A model generated the notes under the pieces. It was not told the origin of the DNA. It was given only the letters and a program-made list of their open reading frames with translations, and did no database searches. Positions 12,326-29,378 of a stretch of 29,378 nucleotides of DNA are shown here, one piece after another. Origin of the DNA: a virus (lineage: Duplodnaviria > Caudoviricetes); the IMG/VR virus record IMGVR_UViG_3300026260_000659, positions 1-29,378 of that record, one strand, 5' to 3'. Position 1 is the stretch's first letter. Each line of letters opens with the position of its first letter. The position numbers and the translations under genes are program-made.

Positions 12326-13000
12326 TTATATTGAATTGAAACCTTCAATAAATTTTAATAACCAATCGTTTACTTTTGCATCAATTAATAAAGTTATTCT
12401 GTCGGAATCACCATCATTCCATAGACCATGTATTTTCTTCGCAAATGAGACTTGATACATTACTCCAGGTTTGAATTGTACCAATGTATAGAGTCCTTTA
12501 AATCTTTCTTTAAAATCCTTAAGCGATTTACCATCTTTATCATAAGGAACTTCATCCGTCCAGTTGATACCATTCTTTATTCCATCTTTTTCATAGAGTA
12601 ATCTAATATCTTCTGGTATATAATCTAAATCCGTTGCCGCCAACCAACAATCATCATTTGTAATAATGGGTATTTGAACTCTTTTTACATCCTCACCAAT
12701 ATCAGTATCTTCATGTAATCCATAAGACGAATGAGCCTTTCTTCTCATCAATCTAAATCCAGTTATCTCTGTTTCAAAACTATCAAATATTTCTTTAAAA
12801 TATGGTGTATAATTTAATACTCCCCTTAATGGTACATTATTATGATGTTTTTTATGTGATTCTGCTATCTCATTAATACTCGGTAATGATATACAATGAC
12901 CGAACGCTCCATCTTCATATTTAAATCGTTCTTCTACAAACTTTTTATCTTCTCGTAACTTATCTATATCATAAACTTTATTATTTCTACTCAACTTCAT
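12326..13000 (-). CDS. 2OG-Fe(II) oxygenase, aspartyl/asparaginyl beta-hydroxylase-like
   Basis: FRLM...GLHED (HxD)...RVQIPIITND...IHGLWNDGDSDRITLLID. Confidence 0.75.
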   Translation of the reverse strand: MKLSRNNKVYDIDKLREDKKFVEERFKYEDGAFGHCISLPSINEIAESHKKHHNNVPLRGVLNYTPYFKEIFDSFETEITGFRLMRRKAHSSYGLHEDTDIGEDVKRVQIPIITNDDCWLAATDLDYIPEDIRLLYEKDGIKNGINWTDEVPYDKDGKSLKDFKERFKGLYTLVQFKPGVMYQVSFAKKIHGLWNDGDSDRITLLIDAKVNDWLLKFIEGFNSI

Positions 13001-13554
13001 TTATTTATCTTATCCATCTCTCTACATTGAAAACATTTACCACAAATCTCTCCTTCTCTACACCACCAAACTTTTTCTTGTAGTTCTTTTCCTAATCTAT
13101 CCCAACACATTTCTTTTGTAAAGTTTTTTATTGGTGTTGTTAATTTTATTTTATGATTGGTGTAAACATCATTTTCATTACAAGCCTCTACCACCGAGTA
13201 TAATGTTTTTAAATTCTTTGGTGAGTCTTCATCACTTTCATCTGTTTTTGTAAACCCTACAGCCACCTCATCATATTCTTTTCGATAAGCAATTCTCATA
13301 CCATCAACCAAACATATAAATACATCACCAAGAACACTTGCATACTGAACTGATTCTGTTAAATTAAATGGTCGTATCTTTTGTAACATTGGTTCTATAC
13401 TTTGAACAGCATCCAATTGTTTATTAATCATACCACCTCTGTTTAATAATTTAATATGGTGTGCATGAACTTCACAATCACTTTGTTCTAAATGAAACTT
13501 TAGAAGTGTAGTAGAATCAACCCCACCGCTCCACAACACTAAAACCTTATACAT
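12997..13554 (-). CDS. queC: QueC-family PP-loop ATPase (7-cyano-7-deazaguanine synthase-like; substrate uncertain)
   Basis: VLWSGGVDST PP-loop; TP...TK; C-terminal WWC....CGKCFQC zinc site. Confidence 0.72.
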   Translation of the reverse strand: MYKVLVLWSGGVDSTTLLKFHLEQSDCEVHAHHIKLLNRGGMINKQLDAVQSIEPMLQKIRPFNLTESVQYASVLGDVFICLVDGMRIAYRKEYDEVAVGFTKTDESDEDSPKNLKTLYSVVEACNENDVYTNHKIKLTTPIKNFTKEMCWDRLGKELQEKVWWCREGEICGKCFQCREMDKINK

Positions 13555-14177
13555 TATTTAAAATGATCTCCAACAAATATTTCTTGAATTACATATCGTT
13601 TTCCCTTTGTTACTGGAACAACATTATGACATAGAAATGACGGAAATAATGTTAATGAACCCTTTAATTGGTTCATTGTATACCACTCTTTTGTATTTTT
13701 ATCTTGGATACCAAATTGAACTTCACCACCCTCGTATTCACTTGGGTCTGTGAGTTGGATAATCCCTACAATCTTTCTAACTGAACAACTTCCTACATTG
13801 AAATCTGTGTGCCAACCATAGAATCCACCATCTTGATATTCTATCAATTTTAGTTCATCATCACAACCTTTAATCTCAAAATGAAACACTTTATCATTTA
13901 CGATATTGGCCATTTGAAATATTTTATCTTGTAACCATTTCCAATCTTTATTTGGTTTATCAGGCCTGGACTCAATTGTTGGTTGATCACATAAATACCA
14001 CTCTGTAGTTTTTCTAATCTCTGGTATAATTGTATTTCTACCATCTTCTCCACCAACTCCACCATTGACTTCTTGTTCAGATTCTATTATATCTTTTATT
14101 AATTCATCACATTTTTCGTGTGATAAAAATGTAGGTATTTGAATTGAATATTTTAAATCGTTATTTTGTTTATACAT
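13554..14177 (-). CDS. 2OG-Fe(II) oxygenase (prolyl-4-hydroxylase/PKHD-type)
   Basis: YGWHTD, EYEGGE, FPSFLCHNVVPVTKGKRY. Confidence 0.88.
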   Translation of the reverse strand: MYKQNNDLKYSIQIPTFLSHEKCDELIKDIIESEQEVNGGVGGEDGRNTIIPEIRKTTEWYLCDQPTIESRPDKPNKDWKWLQDKIFQMANIVNDKVFHFEIKGCDDELKLIEYQDGGFYGWHTDFNVGSCSVRKIVGIIQLTDPSEYEGGEVQFGIQDKNTKEWYTMNQLKGSLTLFPSFLCHNVVPVTKGKRYVIQEIFVGDHFK

Positions 14178-14781
14178 AAGTATCTCCTTCCATCCAAGAA
14201 ACTAAAGAATATCTAACCCCGTTTGTGATTGGTGTAACTCTATGTGATAAAAATGATGGAAATATGATTAAAGTACCTTGTGATTTCCTCGCTCTAACCA
14301 AATCACCTTTACACTCAGCTGTACAATGCTGTTTATCAATACATTGACAATCTGTTGAGTTTGTAATACCAAACTCTAACTCTCCACCATCATATTCATC
14401 TTTATCTGATAATTGAACTATTGCAGTTAACTTTCTTAATGAAGCTTTTTTTGCTCCAATATCTGTATGCCAAGTGTAATTACTATCAACTCCATATTTT
14501 AGGAATATAAGTTTATCTAAACTTTCTATTTGGTAATTAAAATATTGTGTGTTTGCAACTTTTATTGCACCATTTAATTTTTTGGATAAATTTTCATCGT
14601 TAAAAGTTGTATTGAGAGTTCTTCTGACATTTGTATTAACTAAATTCTCTGTATAATCACCAGCTAAATTTGCATCTACCAACTCATCCGTATCGAGAGC
14701 ATCTCGTAATTTAGTACACTCTTCTTTAGCTAAAAAATTCTCTCTATATACAACAAACTGAAACCTATCATTTTTTTTCAT
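14170..14781 (-). CDS. 2OG-Fe(II) oxygenase (prolyl-4-hydroxylase/PKHD-type) with Cys-rich insertion
   Basis: YTWHTD, RKLTAIVQL, EYDGGEL, FPSFLSHRVTPITNGVRYSLVSW. Confidence 0.88.
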   Translation of the reverse strand: MKKNDRFQFVVYRENFLAKEECTKLRDALDTDELVDANLAGDYTENLVNTNVRRTLNTTFNDENLSKKLNGAIKVANTQYFNYQIESLDKLIFLKYGVDSNYTWHTDIGAKKASLRKLTAIVQLSDKDEYDGGELEFGITNSTDCQCIDKQHCTAECKGDLVRARKSQGTLIIFPSFLSHRVTPITNGVRYSLVSWMEGDTYV

Positions 14782-16340: not shown

Positions 16341-16912
16341 CAAGTATCCAATAAATCAATTATATTTCCTCGTATTCCGTTTTCTTTTAATGCATACAGC
16401 AATGGTGCTTTATTCCATATTTCAATATCATACACAACATAATTGTACCCAAGTTCATATAAGTGTTTAAATCCATGTATTCCTATAGAATAATCTCTTA
16501 TACCACGATATTCTGAATCAATCCAAATGTTATAACCATAAATATACTTACCAGTATAAATTATGTCAACTCCAGATTCAGTATAATCAAAACTTGGTGT
16601 ATTATAAACAGGACTACCATTTTGATCCCATGTCTTGTATATTTTTTGACCCAACCACAACCATGCTATAATTCTATCATCTTTAGTAATATAACTAAAT
16701 ATATCACCATTATTAATTCTCCAATCAAAATCGGATTCATTCCACATACCTTCATAATCACCAATATCTTTTTTAAATAACTCTAATCCATCATTAAGAT
16801 TATCTGGCTTCCCAACATGAAAATTAGAATTAATCTCCATACTTTTATAGAACCCCTGGTGATCCAGAAGATTGGTTTCAAATCGTATTAGTTTTTCTTT
16901 ACTGTTTTCCAT
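16340..16912 (-). CDS. GNAT-fold N-acyltransferase
   Basis: IIAWLW, YIYGYNIWIDSEYRG, IEIWNKAPL (acyl-CoA-binding motif A/B pattern). Confidence 0.65.
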   Translation of the reverse strand: MENSKEKLIRFETNLLDHQGFYKSMEINSNFHVGKPDNLNDGLELFKKDIGDYEGMWNESDFDWRINNGDIFSYITKDDRIIAWLWLGQKIYKTWDQNGSPVYNTPSFDYTESGVDIIYTGKYIYGYNIWIDSEYRGIRDYSIGIHGFKHLYELGYNYVVYDIEIWNKAPLLYALKENGIRGNIIDLLDT

Positions 16913-17571
16913 CCTGATCTCTTCACTATATTATCACTTCTACCCTTCCAATAAAAGAACTCACCATCAAATGTAAAAATATCTTTTGTATCAAAAAAAT
17001 CTTTATCGTAATTAGATAACATAGACTCTCCTCTTAATCGTAAAGTTTTATCCAACATGATATCCCAACCACCAATGAGTTTTATTCCAAGATGTATATC
17101 ATCACCCTTCACAAAATTAGTACCCATAACTACTGGTATACATTCTGTAGAACCATAACCATGCATTACTTTTTGTACACCCAACTCTAACATAAACTCT
17201 ACATCATCTACTGATGTTTCTTCGGCACCTATTAACATATGTTCTATAGAACTACAATTTGGTCTTAGTCCACTTTCTTTTAACATCCTTACCATTGTAG
17301 GTATTAATATTAATTTTGTAGGTTTTAAATTTATCATTTGTTTAAACACTTCAGGTGAAAACTTATCACTATATATAGTTCCACCAATTTGTTCCATAGG
17401 TCTTGCCATAATATACGAACCGATTGTATATCTTGGTATAAAATCCAATAGTATATCTGATTTATTCAGACCAAATACTTCTATATTTGAATTGATTGAA
17501 TGTTGTAAAGATTCTTCACTATGTAAAACTTCTTTTGGTTTTCCTGTAGAACCTGTAGTTTTAAACTTCAC
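16888..17571 (-). CDS. Minimal adenylate-forming (ANL, acyl-CoA ligase-like) enzyme
   Basis: TTGSTGKPK (A3), LIGAE, HGYGSTE (A5), FDTKD (A7), KGRSDNIVKRSG (A8). Probable GTG start at 17571 after GGGGT; the ORF track start 17634 overlaps the upstream gene by 74 nt. Confidence 0.8.
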   Translation of the reverse strand: MKFKTTGSTGKPKEVLHSEESLQHSINSNIEVFGLNKSDILLDFIPRYTIGSYIMARPMEQIGGTIYSDKFSPEVFKQMINLKPTKLILIPTMVRMLKESGLRPNCSSIEHMLIGAEETSVDDVEFMLELGVQKVMHGYGSTECIPVVMGTNFVKGDDIHLGIKLIGGWDIMLDKTLRLRGESMLSNYDKDFFDTKDIFTFDGEFFYWKGRSDNIVKRSGWKTVKKN

Positions 17572-17971
17572 TTTTACCCCACTTGATAATGTTCCAAACT
17601 CTTTCATGTACATAGTGTGTAACAATAAATGCAATGTTACTATATATTGTCCACTCTAAAGATGAACTATTATCTAATCCTAATGCCTTACCAATAAAGA
17701 ATAATACTATAAAAGAATAAACCCTCCAAGTAATTGTTTTAATTACACTTCTTCTTTTAGTATCACTTTCATTTAATCTATCCCAATTAACACGATTCCA
17801 AATATATTCGTGTATAAGATAACTTACAAACCCTATCGTGTAACTTGCAACTACCAATTTCAATGCAAATTCATTACCATGTCCTAATAGATATGATAAT
17901 AAAAATATTGAAAGTAATCCTGCAGTTCTATAACTTAATGTTTTTACTGTTGTTCTATAATTTTTATCCAT
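17561..17971 (-). CDS. Membrane protein with two tandem DUF2061-like repeats
   Basis: RTTVKTLSYR...HEYIWNRVNW and RSVIKTITWR...HERVWNIIKWG. Confidence 0.78.
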   Translation of the reverse strand: MDKNYRTTVKTLSYRTAGLLSIFLLSYLLGHGNEFALKLVVASYTIGFVSYLIHEYIWNRVNWDRLNESDTKRRSVIKTITWRVYSFIVLFFIGKALGLDNSSSLEWTIYSNIAFIVTHYVHERVWNIIKWGKSEV

Positions 17972-17972
17972 T

Positions 17973-18218
17973 TTATTCTCCTTGTTGAACTTGACTCATC
18001 ATATTTTTTGGAACGACACCACAATTACCACAACTAAATACTTGAATCGGAACAATTGCCTCTTTACCATTTGGACTCATCAATGCTGATATTCTTTTCA
18101 AAAAGAATGATTGAATGAAAGATACATTCCCACACTCTTCACATTGAATTGTATCTGTTTGTGAAATATCTATTTCTTGTGGTGGTTTTTGATAGTTTCT
18201 ATCTTTTTTCTGTTTCAT
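17973..18218 (-). CDS. Small Zn-ribbon hypothetical protein
   Basis: CEECG...F...CGNCG; AGGA RBS. Confidence 0.75.
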   Translation of the reverse strand: MKQKKDRNYQKPPQEIDISQTDTIQCEECGNVSFIQSFFLKRISALMSPNGKEAIVPIQVFSCGNCGVVPKNMMSQVQQGE

Positions 18219-18258
18219 TTTATTTTTCCTATTATTATTTCTAAATTATCAGTTAAGT

Positions 18259-19293
18259 TCATACCACTCCTTGTAATGTGTGTAAAGAATTAGTTTCTTT
18301 TAACATCTGTTTCCATATTGTTTCAAACTCGGAATAATTAGGATGTCCTTTTTTCCAAACTGCCTTTTCTTCATATTGTTCATCGGTAAGATTACCCCAA
18401 TTTAAAACTTTATAATATTGTGTCTTTACCTTTTTATTAGATAAATTTTCTTTTAATTCAAGTAATTTTAAAATCTCTTTGTAATTATCATTCTGTACTA
18501 CAAAACTAAATATCACCGTTTCAATGGTATCAATAGTATTTATAAATTCTAAGTTCCTCATTAACAAATCCCAATCTCCACCTCTTCTTGTAATCTTATA
18601 AGTTTCTGGTGTAGCAGCATCTATAGATATTTCCATAGTTTTTAAAAATGGATGAACACCTTTCATAGTTTCCCACAACTTTGGTGTAAAAGAATTTGCA
18701 TTAGTATGTAAATGTATATGTCCAACATTTGGATATTTCTTAGTATCAAACTCTTGTAAAAAACTTTTAAAGAAAGGACTTTGTAATGGATCACCTGTTC
18801 CACTTATATATAATCTGTAAGCATCTTTTATAATCTCTTCTGTAACTATTTTATGAATCCGTTCCATATTTTTCCAATTAGGTGAATTTGGTGAATCCAT
18901 AATCATTTCATTTCTACAAGTAGGACAAGATAATGCACAACTTCTGTCATAATTAAAAGCAACAACCAATGGTCCTGTAGTTGCTTCTGGTTTAAACTTT
19001 CTCCACAACACACCTAAATCATCTTTATTGAATACAGGTAATTCAGAATCAAGTTCATCTGATAATAATTGTGAACAATTTTCTTCTATACAATTTTTAA
19101 AAGTAGAATCAATCATACTCTGTCTATATTCTTTTGCAATCTCACCATTCCAAACTTCTTCCCAAGATTGTTCTAATATATTACCCATTGGTTTTGTAAT
19201 CCATCCTGGACAACAATTATAAACATTTCCATCACCGTGAATCTCTGTAAATGCCCACGGTTGTCTACACCATCGGTTCTTAATATCAATCAC
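18259..19293 (-). CDS. Radical SAM protein with N-terminal SPASM/twitch-like Fe-S domain
   Basis: CALSCPTC (CxxxCxxC), SGTGDP, HTNA, ISIDAAT.ETY...R; N-terminal CRQPW...GNVYNCC...GNI...W...C...C. Confidence 0.88.
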   Translation of the reverse strand: MIDIKNRWCRQPWAFTEIHGDGNVYNCCPGWITKPMGNILEQSWEEVWNGEIAKEYRQSMIDSTFKNCIEENCSQLLSDELDSELPVFNKDDLGVLWRKFKPEATTGPLVVAFNYDRSCALSCPTCRNEMIMDSPNSPNWKNMERIHKIVTEEIIKDAYRLYISGTGDPLQSPFFKSFLQEFDTKKYPNVGHIHLHTNANSFTPKLWETMKGVHPFLKTMEISIDAATPETYKITRRGGDWDLLMRNLEFINTIDTIETVIFSFVVQNDNYKEILKLLELKENLSNKKVKTQYYKVLNWGNLTDEQYEEKAVWKKGHPNYSEFETIWKQMLKETNSLHTLQGVV

Positions 19294-24781: not shown

Positions 24782-24819
24782 TGTCTTAATATAACAACAA
24801 AACCCTATATGAGTCAAGC
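24782..24819 (-). promoter_or_regulatory. Sigma70-like promoter TTGACT-N18-TATATT
   Basis: Minus strand reads GCTTGACTCATATAGGGTTTTGTTGTTATATTAAGACA; second copy of the element at 11281-11318. Confidence 0.72.
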
Positions 24820-24834: not shown

Positions 24835-24861
24835 AGGGGGATAATATTGAACTATCCCCCT
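24835..24861 (-). terminator. Stem-loop after the TonB receptor gene (putative terminator or 3' stabiliser)
   Basis: AGGGGGATA-N9-TATCCCCCT, a 9-bp stem 10 nt past the stop; only a weak U-tract follows. Confidence 0.6.
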
Positions 24862-24871
24862 AAATACTATT

Positions 24872-27670
24872 TTAGAAATTAACACTTAACCCTAAGTTAA
24901 AGTATCTTGGTGTACCAAGAAATACTTCAGCATTATGAGCTGCGTGTACTTTATCTCCATAACTGTTGTATTGACTATGATCAACAGCGTCTTGTACATA
25001 TACTTCATCCAATGCGTTAAACACATGAGCGAATAAAGATATATCATATCCACTAACTGGTAGTTTATATGAAGCATGTAAGTCCACCTTAGAATATCCA
25101 GGTGCTTGCCATACTTGTTCTCTGTCAGCGTCTTCATCTGAACCATCATACTCTCGAGCATCAGGACTCCAATCACTATAGTTCTTTTCATAAGAATTCC
25201 ATAGTGCTGAAATTGCTAATCCCTTTACAGGTGTAATGGTAGCACCAAGTGCATATGATGTCTGTGGTTGATCACCAACAAACAATCCGTTAAGAGCGTA
25301 TTGATAATCTGTAGCGGTTAAACCCGTTACATTACCGTTTTCATCATATTCATTTGATTGATATTTACCACTTGCATCACCATCAAACTTCCAAGTACCA
25401 AGACTTACGGCAGCCGTTAAACTAACCATCTTGTGTAATTGTGTAGAAGCTTCTACTTCTAAACCTTGATGTTTTTGATTAATACCTGTTAAGAAGATAA
25501 CATCAGTATCACCTGAATCACCTTGACCTGTGGTTACAGCTTTAGTAAGGTTTCTGTCTTTCCAATCTGTATTATAAACACCCGCTTTAACTGCGAATTT
25601 ATCAGATTTGAAATTGACTCCAGCCTCTGTACTAATGAAACTTTCATTCGTTGGATCAGAAGCAACCGTACCATCATAGTAAATTACATTATCCATGATT
25701 GGTGGTTTTTCAACATAGCCAAAGTTACCAAAAAGACTAACATTGTCATCTATGTCGTACATTGCTCCACCTTTGAATTGCATCGTATAGATAGCATCAG
25801 CATCTACAACTTCATTTGCAACTGTAAAATGGTCTTGGTAAGAATACTTAATACTTGATAATCCACCCATACCATATAGATTTAAATTATCTTTTGTATA
25901 ATTACCTTGTACAAATCCACCTAACCAGTCAACTGTAGTTGAGTTATGATAAGCGATTATATCACCTAATTCAACTCGTTTACCATCAGGAGAGTTATCA
26001 TCAGCATAATCCATATAGTAATCACCACCAAGTAAATCGCGAACTTCACGAGCATGTTCGATACCCGCAGTTCTCCAATCTATACCTACTTGTATTTTTA
26101 ACTCATCACTAATATCGTAATTAAGTTTAGAAATTACACCGTATGTATCTTGACGATTAATACTATTTCTTAGAATACCAACTGATTGATTATTACCTTC
26201 ACCATGTGTTCTTGGAAGTGCTCTTTTATCAACATATACTGTATCAGAATCACCTGAGTTATATGCGATAAGAGTATTCCAATCACGAGTCCAGGGAGAG
26301 CGACCATAATAGAATTTATAGTTTTCTCCACCTAAAGTACCATCGGCATCTAAAGTAGGAATCCTACCATAAGTACCTGTACCACCACCTGAACCACCAC
26401 TCCAATAAAAGACAGAACTTAAGCTTGTCTTATCATCGATAGCCCAAAAATGGTTTAAGTTAACCAATGGTTTATGAAAGTAATTTTCTCTCTCATTTAA
26501 GAAGTTGGGGTCATGTCTGTCTGCCAATCCACTATCAAATAGTCCACCAACACCATACATATACCAGTATTGTTTACCTGTATATGAAGCATCTACTGGA
26601 GACCAGTTTTGATTGAAGAATCGTCCAACATCCTTGAACTTACCATCTTCTCCAAGTGCGGTTTCATCATATCCATCTACACTTGCAGCAAAATCAGCGT
26701 CATAAGCACCAATATTCTGTTTGTATAGATTCTGTCCATGTCGCTGTGGAGCACCGATTGCGTATAATTCCAATCGATGATCTTCATTCACTTGATAACT
26801 TGAACCTAAATAATAAGCCCATGCATCTGTCCATGTTTTGTCGATAAGACCATCACCTGTTTTTCGTACAATAGCACCACTCAAGGCGAATTTATCACCA
26901 ATAAGTCCACTATTATAATTCAGAGTAGTTTTTAGAAAACCACCTGCACCACTTTCCTGTTTAAACTTCCCACCTTTTTCATAAGAAGCAGGGTCTGTGA
27001 TTATGTTCATAGTTCCACCAATGGAAGGGGCAGCTAAATTAACAGCAGATAGTCCTCTTTGCATCTGAATTGATTGGGCTGCATCTGCAACACCATCCCA
27101 ATTAGACCAATAGACCCATCCGTTCTCCATATCATTCTGGGGAACTCCGTTAATCATTACTGCTATATTCCTCTGATTAAACCCACGAACATTAATACGA
27201 GCATCACCCGCACCACCACCTTGTTGTGTTGCATATACACTTGGTGTAGCATTCAAAGACATTGGAATATCTTGTGAACCAAGACGAAACTCAAGTTCTT
27301 CTTTACTAACTGTAGTGTATGCAACAGGTGTTTTTTCGTCAGCCCTTGAAGCCAAAACTTCGATGTCTGACAATGTAACTGCATCAATTGCTAAAGCAAA
27401 ATCAACATTTACATCTTCTCCACCCACATCTACCTTTTGAGATAGAGATGAATATCCGATGAATGTAGCGGTAATAGTATAAGTTCCAGAATCAACTTTA
27501 ATTGAGTAGAAGCCGTTTACACTAGCTACTGCTCCTAAGTCCGTTCCCTCTACTACTATATTTGCTCCATCCAAAGGATTTGTGTTAGAATCAGTTACAA
27601 GTCCAGTTATAGATTGTGCGAACAATCCAGTTGTCATCATAATTGATACTAATAGATTATATATTTTCAT
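24872..27670 (-). CDS. TonB-dependent outer-membrane receptor with N-terminal carboxypeptidase-regulatory-like domain
   Basis: Signal peptide (..GLFA/QSITG), PLDGANIVVEGT..G, plug motif RINVRGF...VMINGVP...IQMQRG.......GGTMNIIT, C-terminal beta-signal LGLSVNF; GAGGAG RBS. Confidence 0.93.
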   Translation of the reverse strand: MKIYNLLVSIMMTTGLFAQSITGLVTDSNTNPLDGANIVVEGTDLGAVASVNGFYSIKVDSGTYTITATFIGYSSLSQKVDVGGEDVNVDFALAIDAVTLSDIEVLASRADEKTPVAYTTVSKEELEFRLGSQDIPMSLNATPSVYATQQGGGAGDARINVRGFNQRNIAVMINGVPQNDMENGWVYWSNWDGVADAAQSIQMQRGLSAVNLAAPSIGGTMNIITDPASYEKGGKFKQESGAGGFLKTTLNYNSGLIGDKFALSGAIVRKTGDGLIDKTWTDAWAYYLGSSYQVNEDHRLELYAIGAPQRHGQNLYKQNIGAYDADFAASVDGYDETALGEDGKFKDVGRFFNQNWSPVDASYTGKQYWYMYGVGGLFDSGLADRHDPNFLNERENYFHKPLVNLNHFWAIDDKTSLSSVFYWSGGSGGGTGTYGRIPTLDADGTLGGENYKFYYGRSPWTRDWNTLIAYNSGDSDTVYVDKRALPRTHGEGNNQSVGILRNSINRQDTYGVISKLNYDISDELKIQVGIDWRTAGIEHAREVRDLLGGDYYMDYADDNSPDGKRVELGDIIAYHNSTTVDWLGGFVQGNYTKDNLNLYGMGGLSSIKYSYQDHFTVANEVVDADAIYTMQFKGGAMYDIDDNVSLFGNFGYVEKPPIMDNVIYYDGTVASDPTNESFISTEAGVNFKSDKFAVKAGVYNTDWKDRNLTKAVTTGQGDSGDTDVIFLTGINQKHQGLEVEASTQLHKMVSLTAAVSLGTWKFDGDASGKYQSNEYDENGNVTGLTATDYQYALNGLFVGDQPQTSYALGATITPVKGLAISALWNSYEKNYSDWSPDAREYDGSDEDADREQVWQAPGYSKVDLHASYKLPVSGYDISLFAHVFNALDEVYVQDAVDHSQYNSYGDKVHAAHNAEVFLGTPRYFNLGLSVNF

Positions 27671-27697
27671 TTATAATCTCCTCTGTTTGTGTGTTAA

Positions 27698-27731
27698 GAC
27701 GCATTTTTTCATAGGTGCGTCAACTGCCTAT
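27698..27731 (-). promoter_or_regulatory. Predicted H-type RNA pseudoknot in the 5' leader of the TonB receptor
   Basis: AUAGG-CAGUU-GACGCA-CCUAU-GAAAAAA-UGCGUC: two perfectly complementary interleaved stems of 5 and 6 bp. Confidence 0.62.
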
Positions 27732-27747
27732 TCGGGTATGTGAAATC

Positions 27748-29378
27748 TTAATTTGCATATTCTTGATCATCGTTATCTCCACTTAATGGTGGTATCTCAC
27801 ACGAATCATTATTACAAAATTTATCTATTTCTGCCTCTTCGTTTTTAATTACTCCAAACGAAAGTGGTTTTAGTTTTTTTAATTTCTTGTTATATAACTT
27901 TTCATCTATTGCTTCATATGGCATTTGTTTGTAAGCTCCATAATCATGTCTTGGTAATAGTGAAATCCCTTTTAATCTGTATTGAAAATAATTCAACACA
28001 TATGGTAGTTCTTCAGCTTCTGTTTCAGGATTGAATGTAGCTGTACAACTAACTTGGTTATCTGCCCAATGTCGTTGTAAGAATGCGGCTAAACTAAACT
28101 GTTCCCAGATTGATAATTCAGCCGCAGTTCTAATCCCCTCACCTACATCTACTGGCACTTCTACAACTAATGTTGTTTTCTCTGAACCAAATGCTGGTTC
28201 TAATTTGTAACCTGCCCTTTTCAATGGCTGTATCAGGTCAGAGTTAACTGATAACCTAACTCTTCTAATATAAAATCTACTCTCTGGATAATGTAATCCT
28301 GGTGTTGCTCCTGCCAATAATGAAACCGTTCCACTTGGTTTTACACTTGTAGTCTTAATAGACTTAGGTACTGCAAACCAATCTGAATAAACTTTATCCC
28401 ACTCTTGTATAACATCATATCCATCTTCCAACCAATTTCGTAATGCATCTAATCCATTATTAGTAATGAATTGTGCTACTCCACTAACACTACATCCAAT
28501 TCTTCTATTTCTCAACATAACTCTGTTTGTATCACTCCAATGTGTTCTACCAAGTGTTACGGTTTTGGCGTATAAATAAGCATATTTTAATGTACGAGAA
28601 TAATCCTCATATGAATCATGATTATTTGGAAATGTTTCTACTAAACAACATAACTCATAACTCTCTAACGATTGTTCTAAACATGGATTTCCACCTGCAA
28701 CTCTGTGGTCTACATCATCTCCACCATTCTTCATACGAGAAAAGTGTCTCATATTTTCTAACCATGCTAATCCAGGTTCTCCATTGTCTACTATTCTTTT
28801 ACAAATGTCTGAATAGTCCATACCTAATTCAGCAAAAACTGAATTATTTGAAGTCCACCCAAATTGCTCTCTATGTTTATTAACTTTATAATTCTTTAAA
28901 TCTAAATATTCTTCATCATGTGGATCACCGAACACAATCTCTGCTGTTCGTCTTACATTACCTGCTACTACACATTTACCTATAAGATTCATAATATCAA
29001 CAATTGTAGTAGTTGTAATTGGTTCACCACTATTCCTTTCTAATACTTTTCTAATATCTTCGTGAACTTCTTTTAGTGGTTCAGGTCCTGATGATACTCC
29101 ACCGAATCCTTTGATTGGTACACCCTCATCTCTAATTAAACTATAATCAAATTCTACTGGCTGTGAACCATGAAAATAACTCTCTAATAATAACCTTAAT
29201 GAATCCACCCAACCTTCTCTTGTGTCTGGAATCTGAAAAGTTGTTAAATCCCTATCGTTATCAATACCTTTAACAATTATTTCACCAGCACCTTTTACAT
29301 CAAAACCTACACCAACACCTAACATTGATGCGTCCATTAAGAAACAAAATGGTTTTGAATAATCTTCTTTAATTGTTT
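27748..29378 (-). CDS. nrdJ: Class II (adenosylcobalamin-dependent) ribonucleotide reductase, monomeric RTPR type (5' end outside the window)
   Basis: GNVRRTAEI, NPCLEQ, CCLVE, TSVKPSGTVSLL, C-terminal FCNNDSC. The frame stays open upstream of the ORF-track Met (TIKEDYSKPFCFL-MDASM) to the window edge. Confidence 0.92.
   Translation of the reverse strand, partial: TIKEDYSKPFCFLMDASMLGVGVGFDVKGAGEIIVKGIDNDRDLTTFQIPDTREGWVDSLRLLLESYFHGSQPVEFDYSLIRDEGVPIKGFGGVSSGPEPLKEVHEDIRKVLERNSGEPITTTTIVDIMNLIGKCVVAGNVRRTAEIVFGDPHDEEYLDLKNYKVNKHREQFGWTSNNSVFAELGMDYSDICKRIVDNGEPGLAWLENMRHFSRMKNGGDDVDHRVAGGNPCLEQSLESYELCCLVETFPNNHDSYEDYSRTLKYAYLYAKTVTLGRTHWSDTNRVMLRNRRIGCSVSGVAQFITNNGLDALRNWLEDGYDVIQEWDKVYSDWFAVPKSIKTTSVKPSGTVSLLAGATPGLHYPESRFYIRRVRLSVNSDLIQPLKRAGYKLEPAFGSEKTTLVVEVPVDVGEGIRTAAELSIWEQFSLAAFLQRHWADNQVSCTATFNPETEAEELPYVLNYFQYRLKGISLLPRHDYGAYKQMPYEAIDEKLYNKKLKKLKPLSFGVIKNEEAEIDKFCNNDSCEIPPLSGDNDDQEYAN

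Follow-up and report, generated by a model that had tools for sequence, protein, structure and literature searches.

A compact H-type pseudoknot of 34 nt lies in the leader of a TonB-dependent receptor gene in the virus record IMGVR_UViG_3300026260_000659 (IMG/VR, Caudoviricetes), whose 29,378 nt (29 kb) are here called the window. The first-pass annotation had put this element forward as a candidate new cis-regulatory RNA, and that proposal is backed by conservation, by covariation and by the lack of an Rfam match; the analysis supports a conserved cis-element that stands outside the known riboswitch families and is uncatalogued in Rfam. Judged from homologous sequences, its structure is under selection and both of its stems covary. 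Its favoured role, which we rate a little short of an even chance, is to fold constitutively at the 5' end of a receptor mRNA released by processing, much as in the leader of T4 gene 32.

Pfam and NCBIfam searches placed in the window genes for an nrdJ/RTPR-type reductase, a 932-aa TonB-dependent receptor, PolB, a clamp loader, ClpP and many sugar-modifying proteins; records of relatives, one of them a complete 216-kb genome, carry a major head protein, tail sheath, UvsX, a helicase and a gp32-like SSB. The phage appears to be T4-like and marine, and its host is probably a member of the Marinimicrobia (SAR406), since the closest cellular homologues of the receptor (56-73% identity) are mostly from Marinimicrobia and the phage copies are nested among them, forming a single clade (support 1.0) in a 119-protein receptor tree. 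The receptor gene itself (24872..27670, minus strand; CarboxypepD_reg and Plug domains) was assigned from Pfam, genome loci and the tree, and the evidence suggests an outer-membrane importer captured from the host. Upstream on the same strand, profile matches identified a 5'-truncated gene for a B12-dependent ribonucleotide reductase (nrdJ/RTPR-like, 27748..29378). This gene adjoins the knot in 61/73 relatives, of which 58 were assigned by score and 3 by overlap, with other genes in its place in 12/73, and the downstream neighbour of the receptor is polB in 35/66 relatives and another gene in 31/66. Because the genes on both sides vary, the knot belongs to the receptor gene and not to nrdJ.

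Several features of the neighbourhood were recorded alongside. The nrdJ region of one relative (G003, L292:15429-19968) is broken into several frames with long insertions that appear intein-, intron- or homing-endonuclease-like, followed by an unchanged knot and receptor. The insertion point after the receptor, consisting of a conserved hairpin and a CTTGAC-17/18-TATATT promoter, is a variable site of the replication module, with extra genes in 31/66 relatives. Genes at window positions 12997-13554, 13554-14781 and 16888-19293 may form a cluster for modifying bases or sugars: their products are a QueC-like protein, an AMP-binding enzyme, a radical SAM/SPASM protein and two 2OG-Fe(II) oxygenases.

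The knot occupies 27698..27731 of the minus strand, within a 77-nt gap whose sequence and coordinates are as first annotated, and spans -61 to -28 relative to the receptor start, ending 27 nt ahead of it. Its RNA fold is predicted from sequence, covariation and the model R1, which scores the window knot at 55.9 bits, the window sequence being itself part of the R1 training set (via L001). The interleaved stems, zero-length L2 and A-rich L3 described at first pass were recovered: read 5' to 3', the first strand of S1 (27727..27731) forms 5 bp with 27715-27711, loop 1 follows (27722..27726; 5 nt), and the first strand of S2 (27716..27721) forms 6 bp with 27703-27698, with 0 nt of L2 between the stems. 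Loop 3 (27704..27710, minus strand) is a 7-nt A-run holding five A that are invariant in alignment A1; it is predicted to occupy the minor groove of S1, and, as a guess, the CAG of loop 1 may contact the two invariant C-G pairs of S2 through major-groove triples.

The rest of the leader (27671..27697, minus strand) consists of a 14-nt A/C-rich spacer, the Shine-Dalgarno (SD) sequence GAGGAG at 27683-27678 and the spacing to the ATG at 27670, in agreement with the A/C-rich run to the RBS noted earlier; spacer composition is 54% A and 6% G. The distance from the end of the knot to the AUG is 24-39 nt (28-30 in 95/129 leaders), which presumably puts the knot beyond the 30S footprint. As had been claimed, S2 is clear of the RBS, the SD lying 13-28 nt past it. 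Fold prediction with the knot formed left the SD mostly paired in 24/126 leaders (mean unpaired 0.70), and since the SD is thus predicted to be mostly open, no SD switch is evident.

Bare H-type geometry is not rare: perfect patterns of 5+6 bp number 12 in the window, against 2-18 in each of 12 Markov shuffles, which is the level of chance. With at least 6 G/C in the stems, this knot stands alone among the window patterns, and the 12 shuffles yield 0. A chance fold was ruled out by conservation in relatives and by covariation. In a first protein scan, covering the best 80 of 312 matches, 76 of the 77 leaders that include a start carried the knot, the sole miss having just 23 nt of upstream sequence. 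Three protein-based scans, the last two with host proteins as queries, found it in 94/94 distinct viral leaders, a count that leaves out 8 loci as too short.

Covariation in both stems, a check named in the first-pass annotation, was borne out in homologous leaders. Among 36 protein-found distinct rows, an alignment that leaves out one row with a longer loop, 97.2% of cells pair and 6/11 pairs change on both sides; the covariation score was reached by 0/500 shuffles, and slid controls paired at 19-54%. Parsimony on a 59-tip tree gave 7 changes in each column of pair 14-31, all 7 coincident, the best of 190 column pairs; coincident changes were 4/4 at 11-34, 3/4 at 12-33, 2/2 at 2-20 and 1/1 at 3-19. 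The 68 distinct cores show the same exchanges in S1 (2-20, CG 60 and UA 8; 3-19, AU 52 and UA 16) and in S2 (14-31, AU 45 and GC 23; 12-33, AU 55, GC 8 and GU 5), and the outer S1 pair 1-21 is frequently broken. Four pairs, G4-C18, G5-C17, C13-G32 and C15-G30, do not vary in the aligned protein-found and tree set. Positions 13-32 and 15-30 are C-G in 68/68 cores, a pattern-biased set, and in 36/36 protein-found rows, and an IMG/VR-wide scan for a compensated 13-32 variant returned one match, which is not a pseudoknot. Loop 1 is likewise constrained, with C in 67, A in 67 and G in 66 of the 68 cores (partly pattern-biased), and a collection-wide scan found another first base in a 5-nt loop 1 in 1 viral stretch only; variants of 4 and 7 nt, or with an altered third base, do occur. 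The junction pair A16-U29 is closed in 66/68 cores, and A.C replaces A-U in 3 loci.

The distribution of the knot is tied to the phage receptor gene. Viral pattern matches were estimated at ~310, and 105 of the 120 examined gave BLAST matches to the receptor; the rest comprised 10 truncated frames with the receptor N-terminus, 3 short receptor-like starts and 2 unresolved starts. Metagenome pattern matches (~1700 estimated) are mostly chance, and 31 of the 120 examined keep at least 8 of the 9 variable pairs; 30 of these 31 precede the receptor. R1 gave one strong match per genome in 5/5 phage records, always at the receptor, including a single copy in the complete 216-kb relative, and one knot was confirmed in L575. 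At three loci (L171, L184, L199), the frame downstream of the knot and RBS begins like the receptor but breaks off after 27 codons, which would reflect a broken gene or a chimeric contig.

No knot was found in 78/78 cellular receptor loci. A host copy was also sought by a relaxed search of 80 genome loci; a match at the receptor was found only in L254 and L256, whose receptors group with phage proteins, and this candidate was dropped. Both are phage contigs, with an nrdJ-like tail, knot and phage-clade receptor, binned in MAGs labelled Flavobacteriales and Methanobacteriota. R1 found 2 weak matches only (25 and 22 bits, chance level) in 151 host-phylum genomes, a sampled and filtered search with 42 candidates scored per genome; the weak match in L421 is antisense within a coding frame. 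The knot is phage-specific, and the pattern suggests that it was added ahead of the host gene after capture. One receptor on a Marinimicrobia MAG contig (L219, 986-3736) is nearer to the phage clade than to any host copy in 8/8 windows scored and has no knot; its neighbours are a divergent aminotransferase-like gene upstream and a second receptor paralogue downstream, and it may represent a phage-to-cell back-transfer. In several Marinimicrobia, a tRNA-Val(CAC) gene lies upstream of the receptor (L216:1990-2160, L218:5160-5433, L230:5425-5624), preceded by partial tRNA copies whose D-arm is split by a palindrome. The palindrome-tRNA junction shares 14-15 nt with the 5' half of the knot (15-mers, 3 vs 1 in controls; 14-mers, 14 vs 1-13), so that a possible origin of the knot in the host tRNA-Val region is a lead, barely above controls.

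Rfam 15 gave no match at gathering threshold in the window and, at E<=10, only unrelated weak matches to the window and to 20 homologous loci, so that the scan of the leader yielded no matching family. Together with the feature tests below, this bears out the earlier impression that the knot does not fit preQ1-I, SAM-II/V, guanidine-III or cobalamin riboswitches. For SAM-II and SAM-V (as defined in PMC9373788, partial text), the distinction was drawn from SD position, gene context and Rfam score: there is no SD sequestration in the knot or terminator platform, no methionine or SAM gene and no Rfam match. Guanidine-III and cobalamin models gave no Rfam match in the window, there is no efflux gene, and the NCBIfam matches at E<=0.01 include no BtuB model. 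A link to B12 was considered and rejected, there being neither a BtuB model nor a cobalamin riboswitch, and the host neighbours being SRAP, DnaG and dNK rather than an uptake operon. The 10 of the 78 host receptor loci that were scanned contain no riboswitch.

The closest scaffold is the preQ1-I riboswitch, which the knot resembles in its ~34 nt, a 5-bp P1 closed by G-C and an A-rich L3; G5-C17 as an invariant pocket floor and the five invariant A are both present. In preQ1-I, the A-rich L3 takes part in a quintuple-base motif, and a C specificity base (UC or AC) precedes the P1 3' strand (PMC11625349, partial text). Here that base is A (sequence CA; A in 36/36 protein-found rows), and the first L1 base is C (67/68 cores), not U. 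P2 abuts P1 with L2 = 0, and A16-U29 fills the ligand junction; with zero L2 and a closed junction pair, there is no preQ1-type pocket. The downstream gene encodes a TonB receptor, with no que, queT or yhhQ gene, and there is no preQ1-I score at E<=10.

A small-ligand switch that works without SD switching, in which receptor cargo or a nucleotide-pool metabolite locks the knot and alters RNase E access or ribosome loading, is nevertheless conceivable if rather unlikely. It would account for the compact size, the transporter gene downstream, the preQ1-I-like S1 and A-rich L3, the near-invariant loop-1 CA and stem base identities and the A.C at the junction in 3 loci, and it has a precedent in the Legionella guanidine riboswitch, whose ligand-locked knot is reported to alter RNase E access or ribosome loading with no need of an SD switch (PMC9373788, partial text). 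Against it stand the closed, A-U-filled junction, a loop 1 that tolerates 4-7 nt and base changes, the absence of the element from host genes and its place before one gene only, and the lack of a conserved SD-sequestering fold; the riboswitch-like reading of the first pass is weakened accordingly. Its more specific form, a phage-evolved switch of ~34 nt with a preQ1-I-like scaffold and a new pocket that would sense SAR406 importer cargo or a nucleotide-pool signal and set mRNA lifetime via RNase E/G, is less probable still.

The receptor gene appears bounded as a transcription unit at its 3' end. A G5/C5 hairpin (24835..24861, minus strand; -19.2 kcal/mol, z -4.6), terminator-like or a 3' stabiliser, closes it, and similar G-run/C-run hairpins were read by eye after the stop in 52 distinct downstream stretches. 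Beyond it, TTGACT-18-TATATT (24788..24817, minus strand) forms a promoter of the sigma-70 type for the DNA polymerase gene that follows, and this type recurs in 28/52 relatives. Such promoters were found in 4/54 stretches upstream of the knot vs 28/52 downstream of the gene, and a putative promoter motif of the TATTTAT type in 1/54 vs 14/52. Three other candidates were set aside: a general phage promoter, TTCACATAC, was not enriched; a readthrough or frameshift signal at the nrdJ stop does not fit, as the stop-to-knot distance and the upstream gene both vary; and an alternative helix, in which an upstream CACAU motif would pair with the 3' strand of S2, has mismatches both in the window and in many relatives and does not covary.

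Right after the nrdJ stop, the single-stranded motif TTTCACATAC (27736..27745, minus strand) is a candidate RNase E/G cut or protein-binding site. It is present in 80/129 distinct 5' flanks, at a variable 1-23 nt from the knot. Its CACATAC core is found in six host leaders too and seldom occurs ahead of other phage or host genes (2/111 and 1/235). RNA-labelled contigs that match the window or differ from it by one base end at 27725 (X2), 27727 (X6), 27733 (X3) and 27738 (X4), and relatives' RNA contigs stop at 27723-27734 (X3, X7); two X3 contigs continue upstream, and X3 record 4, from a relative, spans nrdJ to the knot. These ends come from contigs of 7 of the 24 listed runs, and a contig does not reveal where an RNA ended. 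The run X4, flagged as probably DNA, has its stop at 27738 as well, so that no DNA control runs past the knot, and relatives identical over 27697-27750 would break a k=31 assembly graph (k assumed) near 27726, which could explain 2/4 ends. The tendency of ocean RNA contigs to stop at the knot is therefore a weak hint of processing, partly confounded. Near-identical cover of polB and nrdJ in these runs is slight or absent, but this carries no weight for expression, since contigs cannot rank genes and a large share of the receptor depth stems from hosts or divergent relatives. Across the marine RNA-labelled runs X1-X7, divergent contigs of the receptor family abound, many of them probably host orthologues.

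The same contig ends could mark a primary transcription start from a promoter that escaped recognition, perhaps one at the TTTCACATAC motif, in which case the knot would serve, with no processing, as an S1/standby-type translation enhancer or a 5' triphosphate shield. The motif follows different upstream genes and is partly common to host leaders, and the tisB pseudoknot serves as an S1/30S landing site (PMC7708055, partial text). We regard this alternative as improbable: TTTCACATAC is missing in 49/129 flanks and is not at a fixed distance from the knot, CACATAC is rare ahead of other genes, and standby sites serve sequestered RBSs, whereas the RBS here is mostly open.

A processed 5' end structure is favoured because the T4 gene 32 leader is the closest working model and because pseudoknots impede RNase E scanning. 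Points for it are the selection on the knot, its receptor linkage and host absence, no recognisable promoter ahead, the hairpin at the gene end and the RNase E/G of the hosts; the knotless receptor of L219 behind a divergent gene is further support, from one case. In the proposed pathway, read-through transcription from the nrdJ side would reach the receptor, followed by host RNase E/G cleavage of the A/U-rich stretch after the upstream stop, so that the receptor mRNA is cut out of a longer replication-operon transcript. Loop A-minor contacts and loop-1 triples would brace the 11 stacked pairs, which would then slow 5'-end-dependent RNase E scanning, and the knot and A/C spacer just beyond the 30S footprint may aid S1/30S loading. 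The outcome would be a long-lived single-gene mRNA, yielding outer-membrane protein in bulk from within the replication operon.

Of the three mechanisms offered at first pass, the 5' stabiliser, taken as a gene-32-like leader, fits best, while the ligand-binding and protein-operator proposals fare less well. A block to a 5'-to-3' exonuclease fits poorly: RNase J over the cut-off was found in 0/5 and RNase E/G in 5/5 host genomes, all incomplete. A passive obstacle also leaves the invariant identities (C13-G32, C15-G30, G4/G5 and loop CA) unexplained, and tertiary contacts or a partner are needed.

The element is a well-supported phage-only RNA motif, not in Rfam, placed ahead of a captured host gene, and it suggests a way for a phage to free the expression of an auxiliary outer-membrane importer from its replication operon. 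Its length of 34 nt and its natural compensatory variants make probing inexpensive, and should a ligand exist, it would also offer a clue to what a conserved Marinimicrobia receptor imports. The motif was not found in the literature searched, which covered few subscription papers. The 8495 IMG/VR candidates of PMC10690425 may include it; the within-25-bp table of that source, in the part available, has no fitting receptor entry, a miss that is uninformative because the knot usually ends >25 nt from the start.

Among systems already described, the tisB standby site shares a 5'-proximal pseudoknot with a single-stranded stretch, on an mRNA that is processed (PMC7708055, partial text); the tisB RBS is sequestered and ~100 nt off, whereas here it is mostly open and 13-28 nt off. 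RNase E obstacles, namely the Legionella guanidine riboswitch and the VPK, BWYV and hTR knots, are likewise coaxial H-type knots upstream of a coding region in a host with RNase E/G, and differ in that here no ligand is assigned and no efflux gene follows. The slowing of RNase E scanning by H-type pseudoknots scales with the number of stacked pairs, and an effect described as 'modest' for 11 bp in E. coli (PMC9943677, partial text) counts against a purely passive obstacle.

The nearest counterpart is the gene 32 leader of T4, T2 and RB69. Both elements are H-type knots of T4-like phages, ~60-70 nt before the start (-61 here, -67 in T4), followed by an unstructured A-rich run to the RBS and set in a polycistronic replication region (PMC3014915, partial text). 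In T4, RNase E cuts at -71, four bases before the pseudoknot at -67, and the gene 32 mRNA is the most stable T4 mRNA; its knot also nucleates SSB binding (same source). The gene here differs, being a captured host outer-membrane receptor and not an SSB, which makes autoregulation by the product implausible. A protein-bound translational operator is still the strongest competing account, if an unlikely one: a gp32-like SSB or another RNA-binding protein, of phage or host, would dock on the knot and spread over the spacer, blocking the RBS and tying receptor synthesis to the replication state. Besides the shared layout, the narrow knot-to-AUG distance, the invariant base identities and the gp32-like SSB encoded by these phages speak for it. 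It is weakened by the phages' own SSB genes, which lie elsewhere and carry no knot: the strong R1 match lies at the receptor only in 5/5 records, no pseudoknot turned up in a generic scan of the 2 parsed SSB leaders of 5, and no RegA match was found in 5 records (a search with no positive control). The gene 32 structure has no Rfam model according to the available part of PMC10690425, and a 2010 T4 review, in its accessible portion, held that the gene 32 knot may be the sole viral pseudoknot in translational autoregulation. A second, unrelated phage leader knot widens the picture beyond it.
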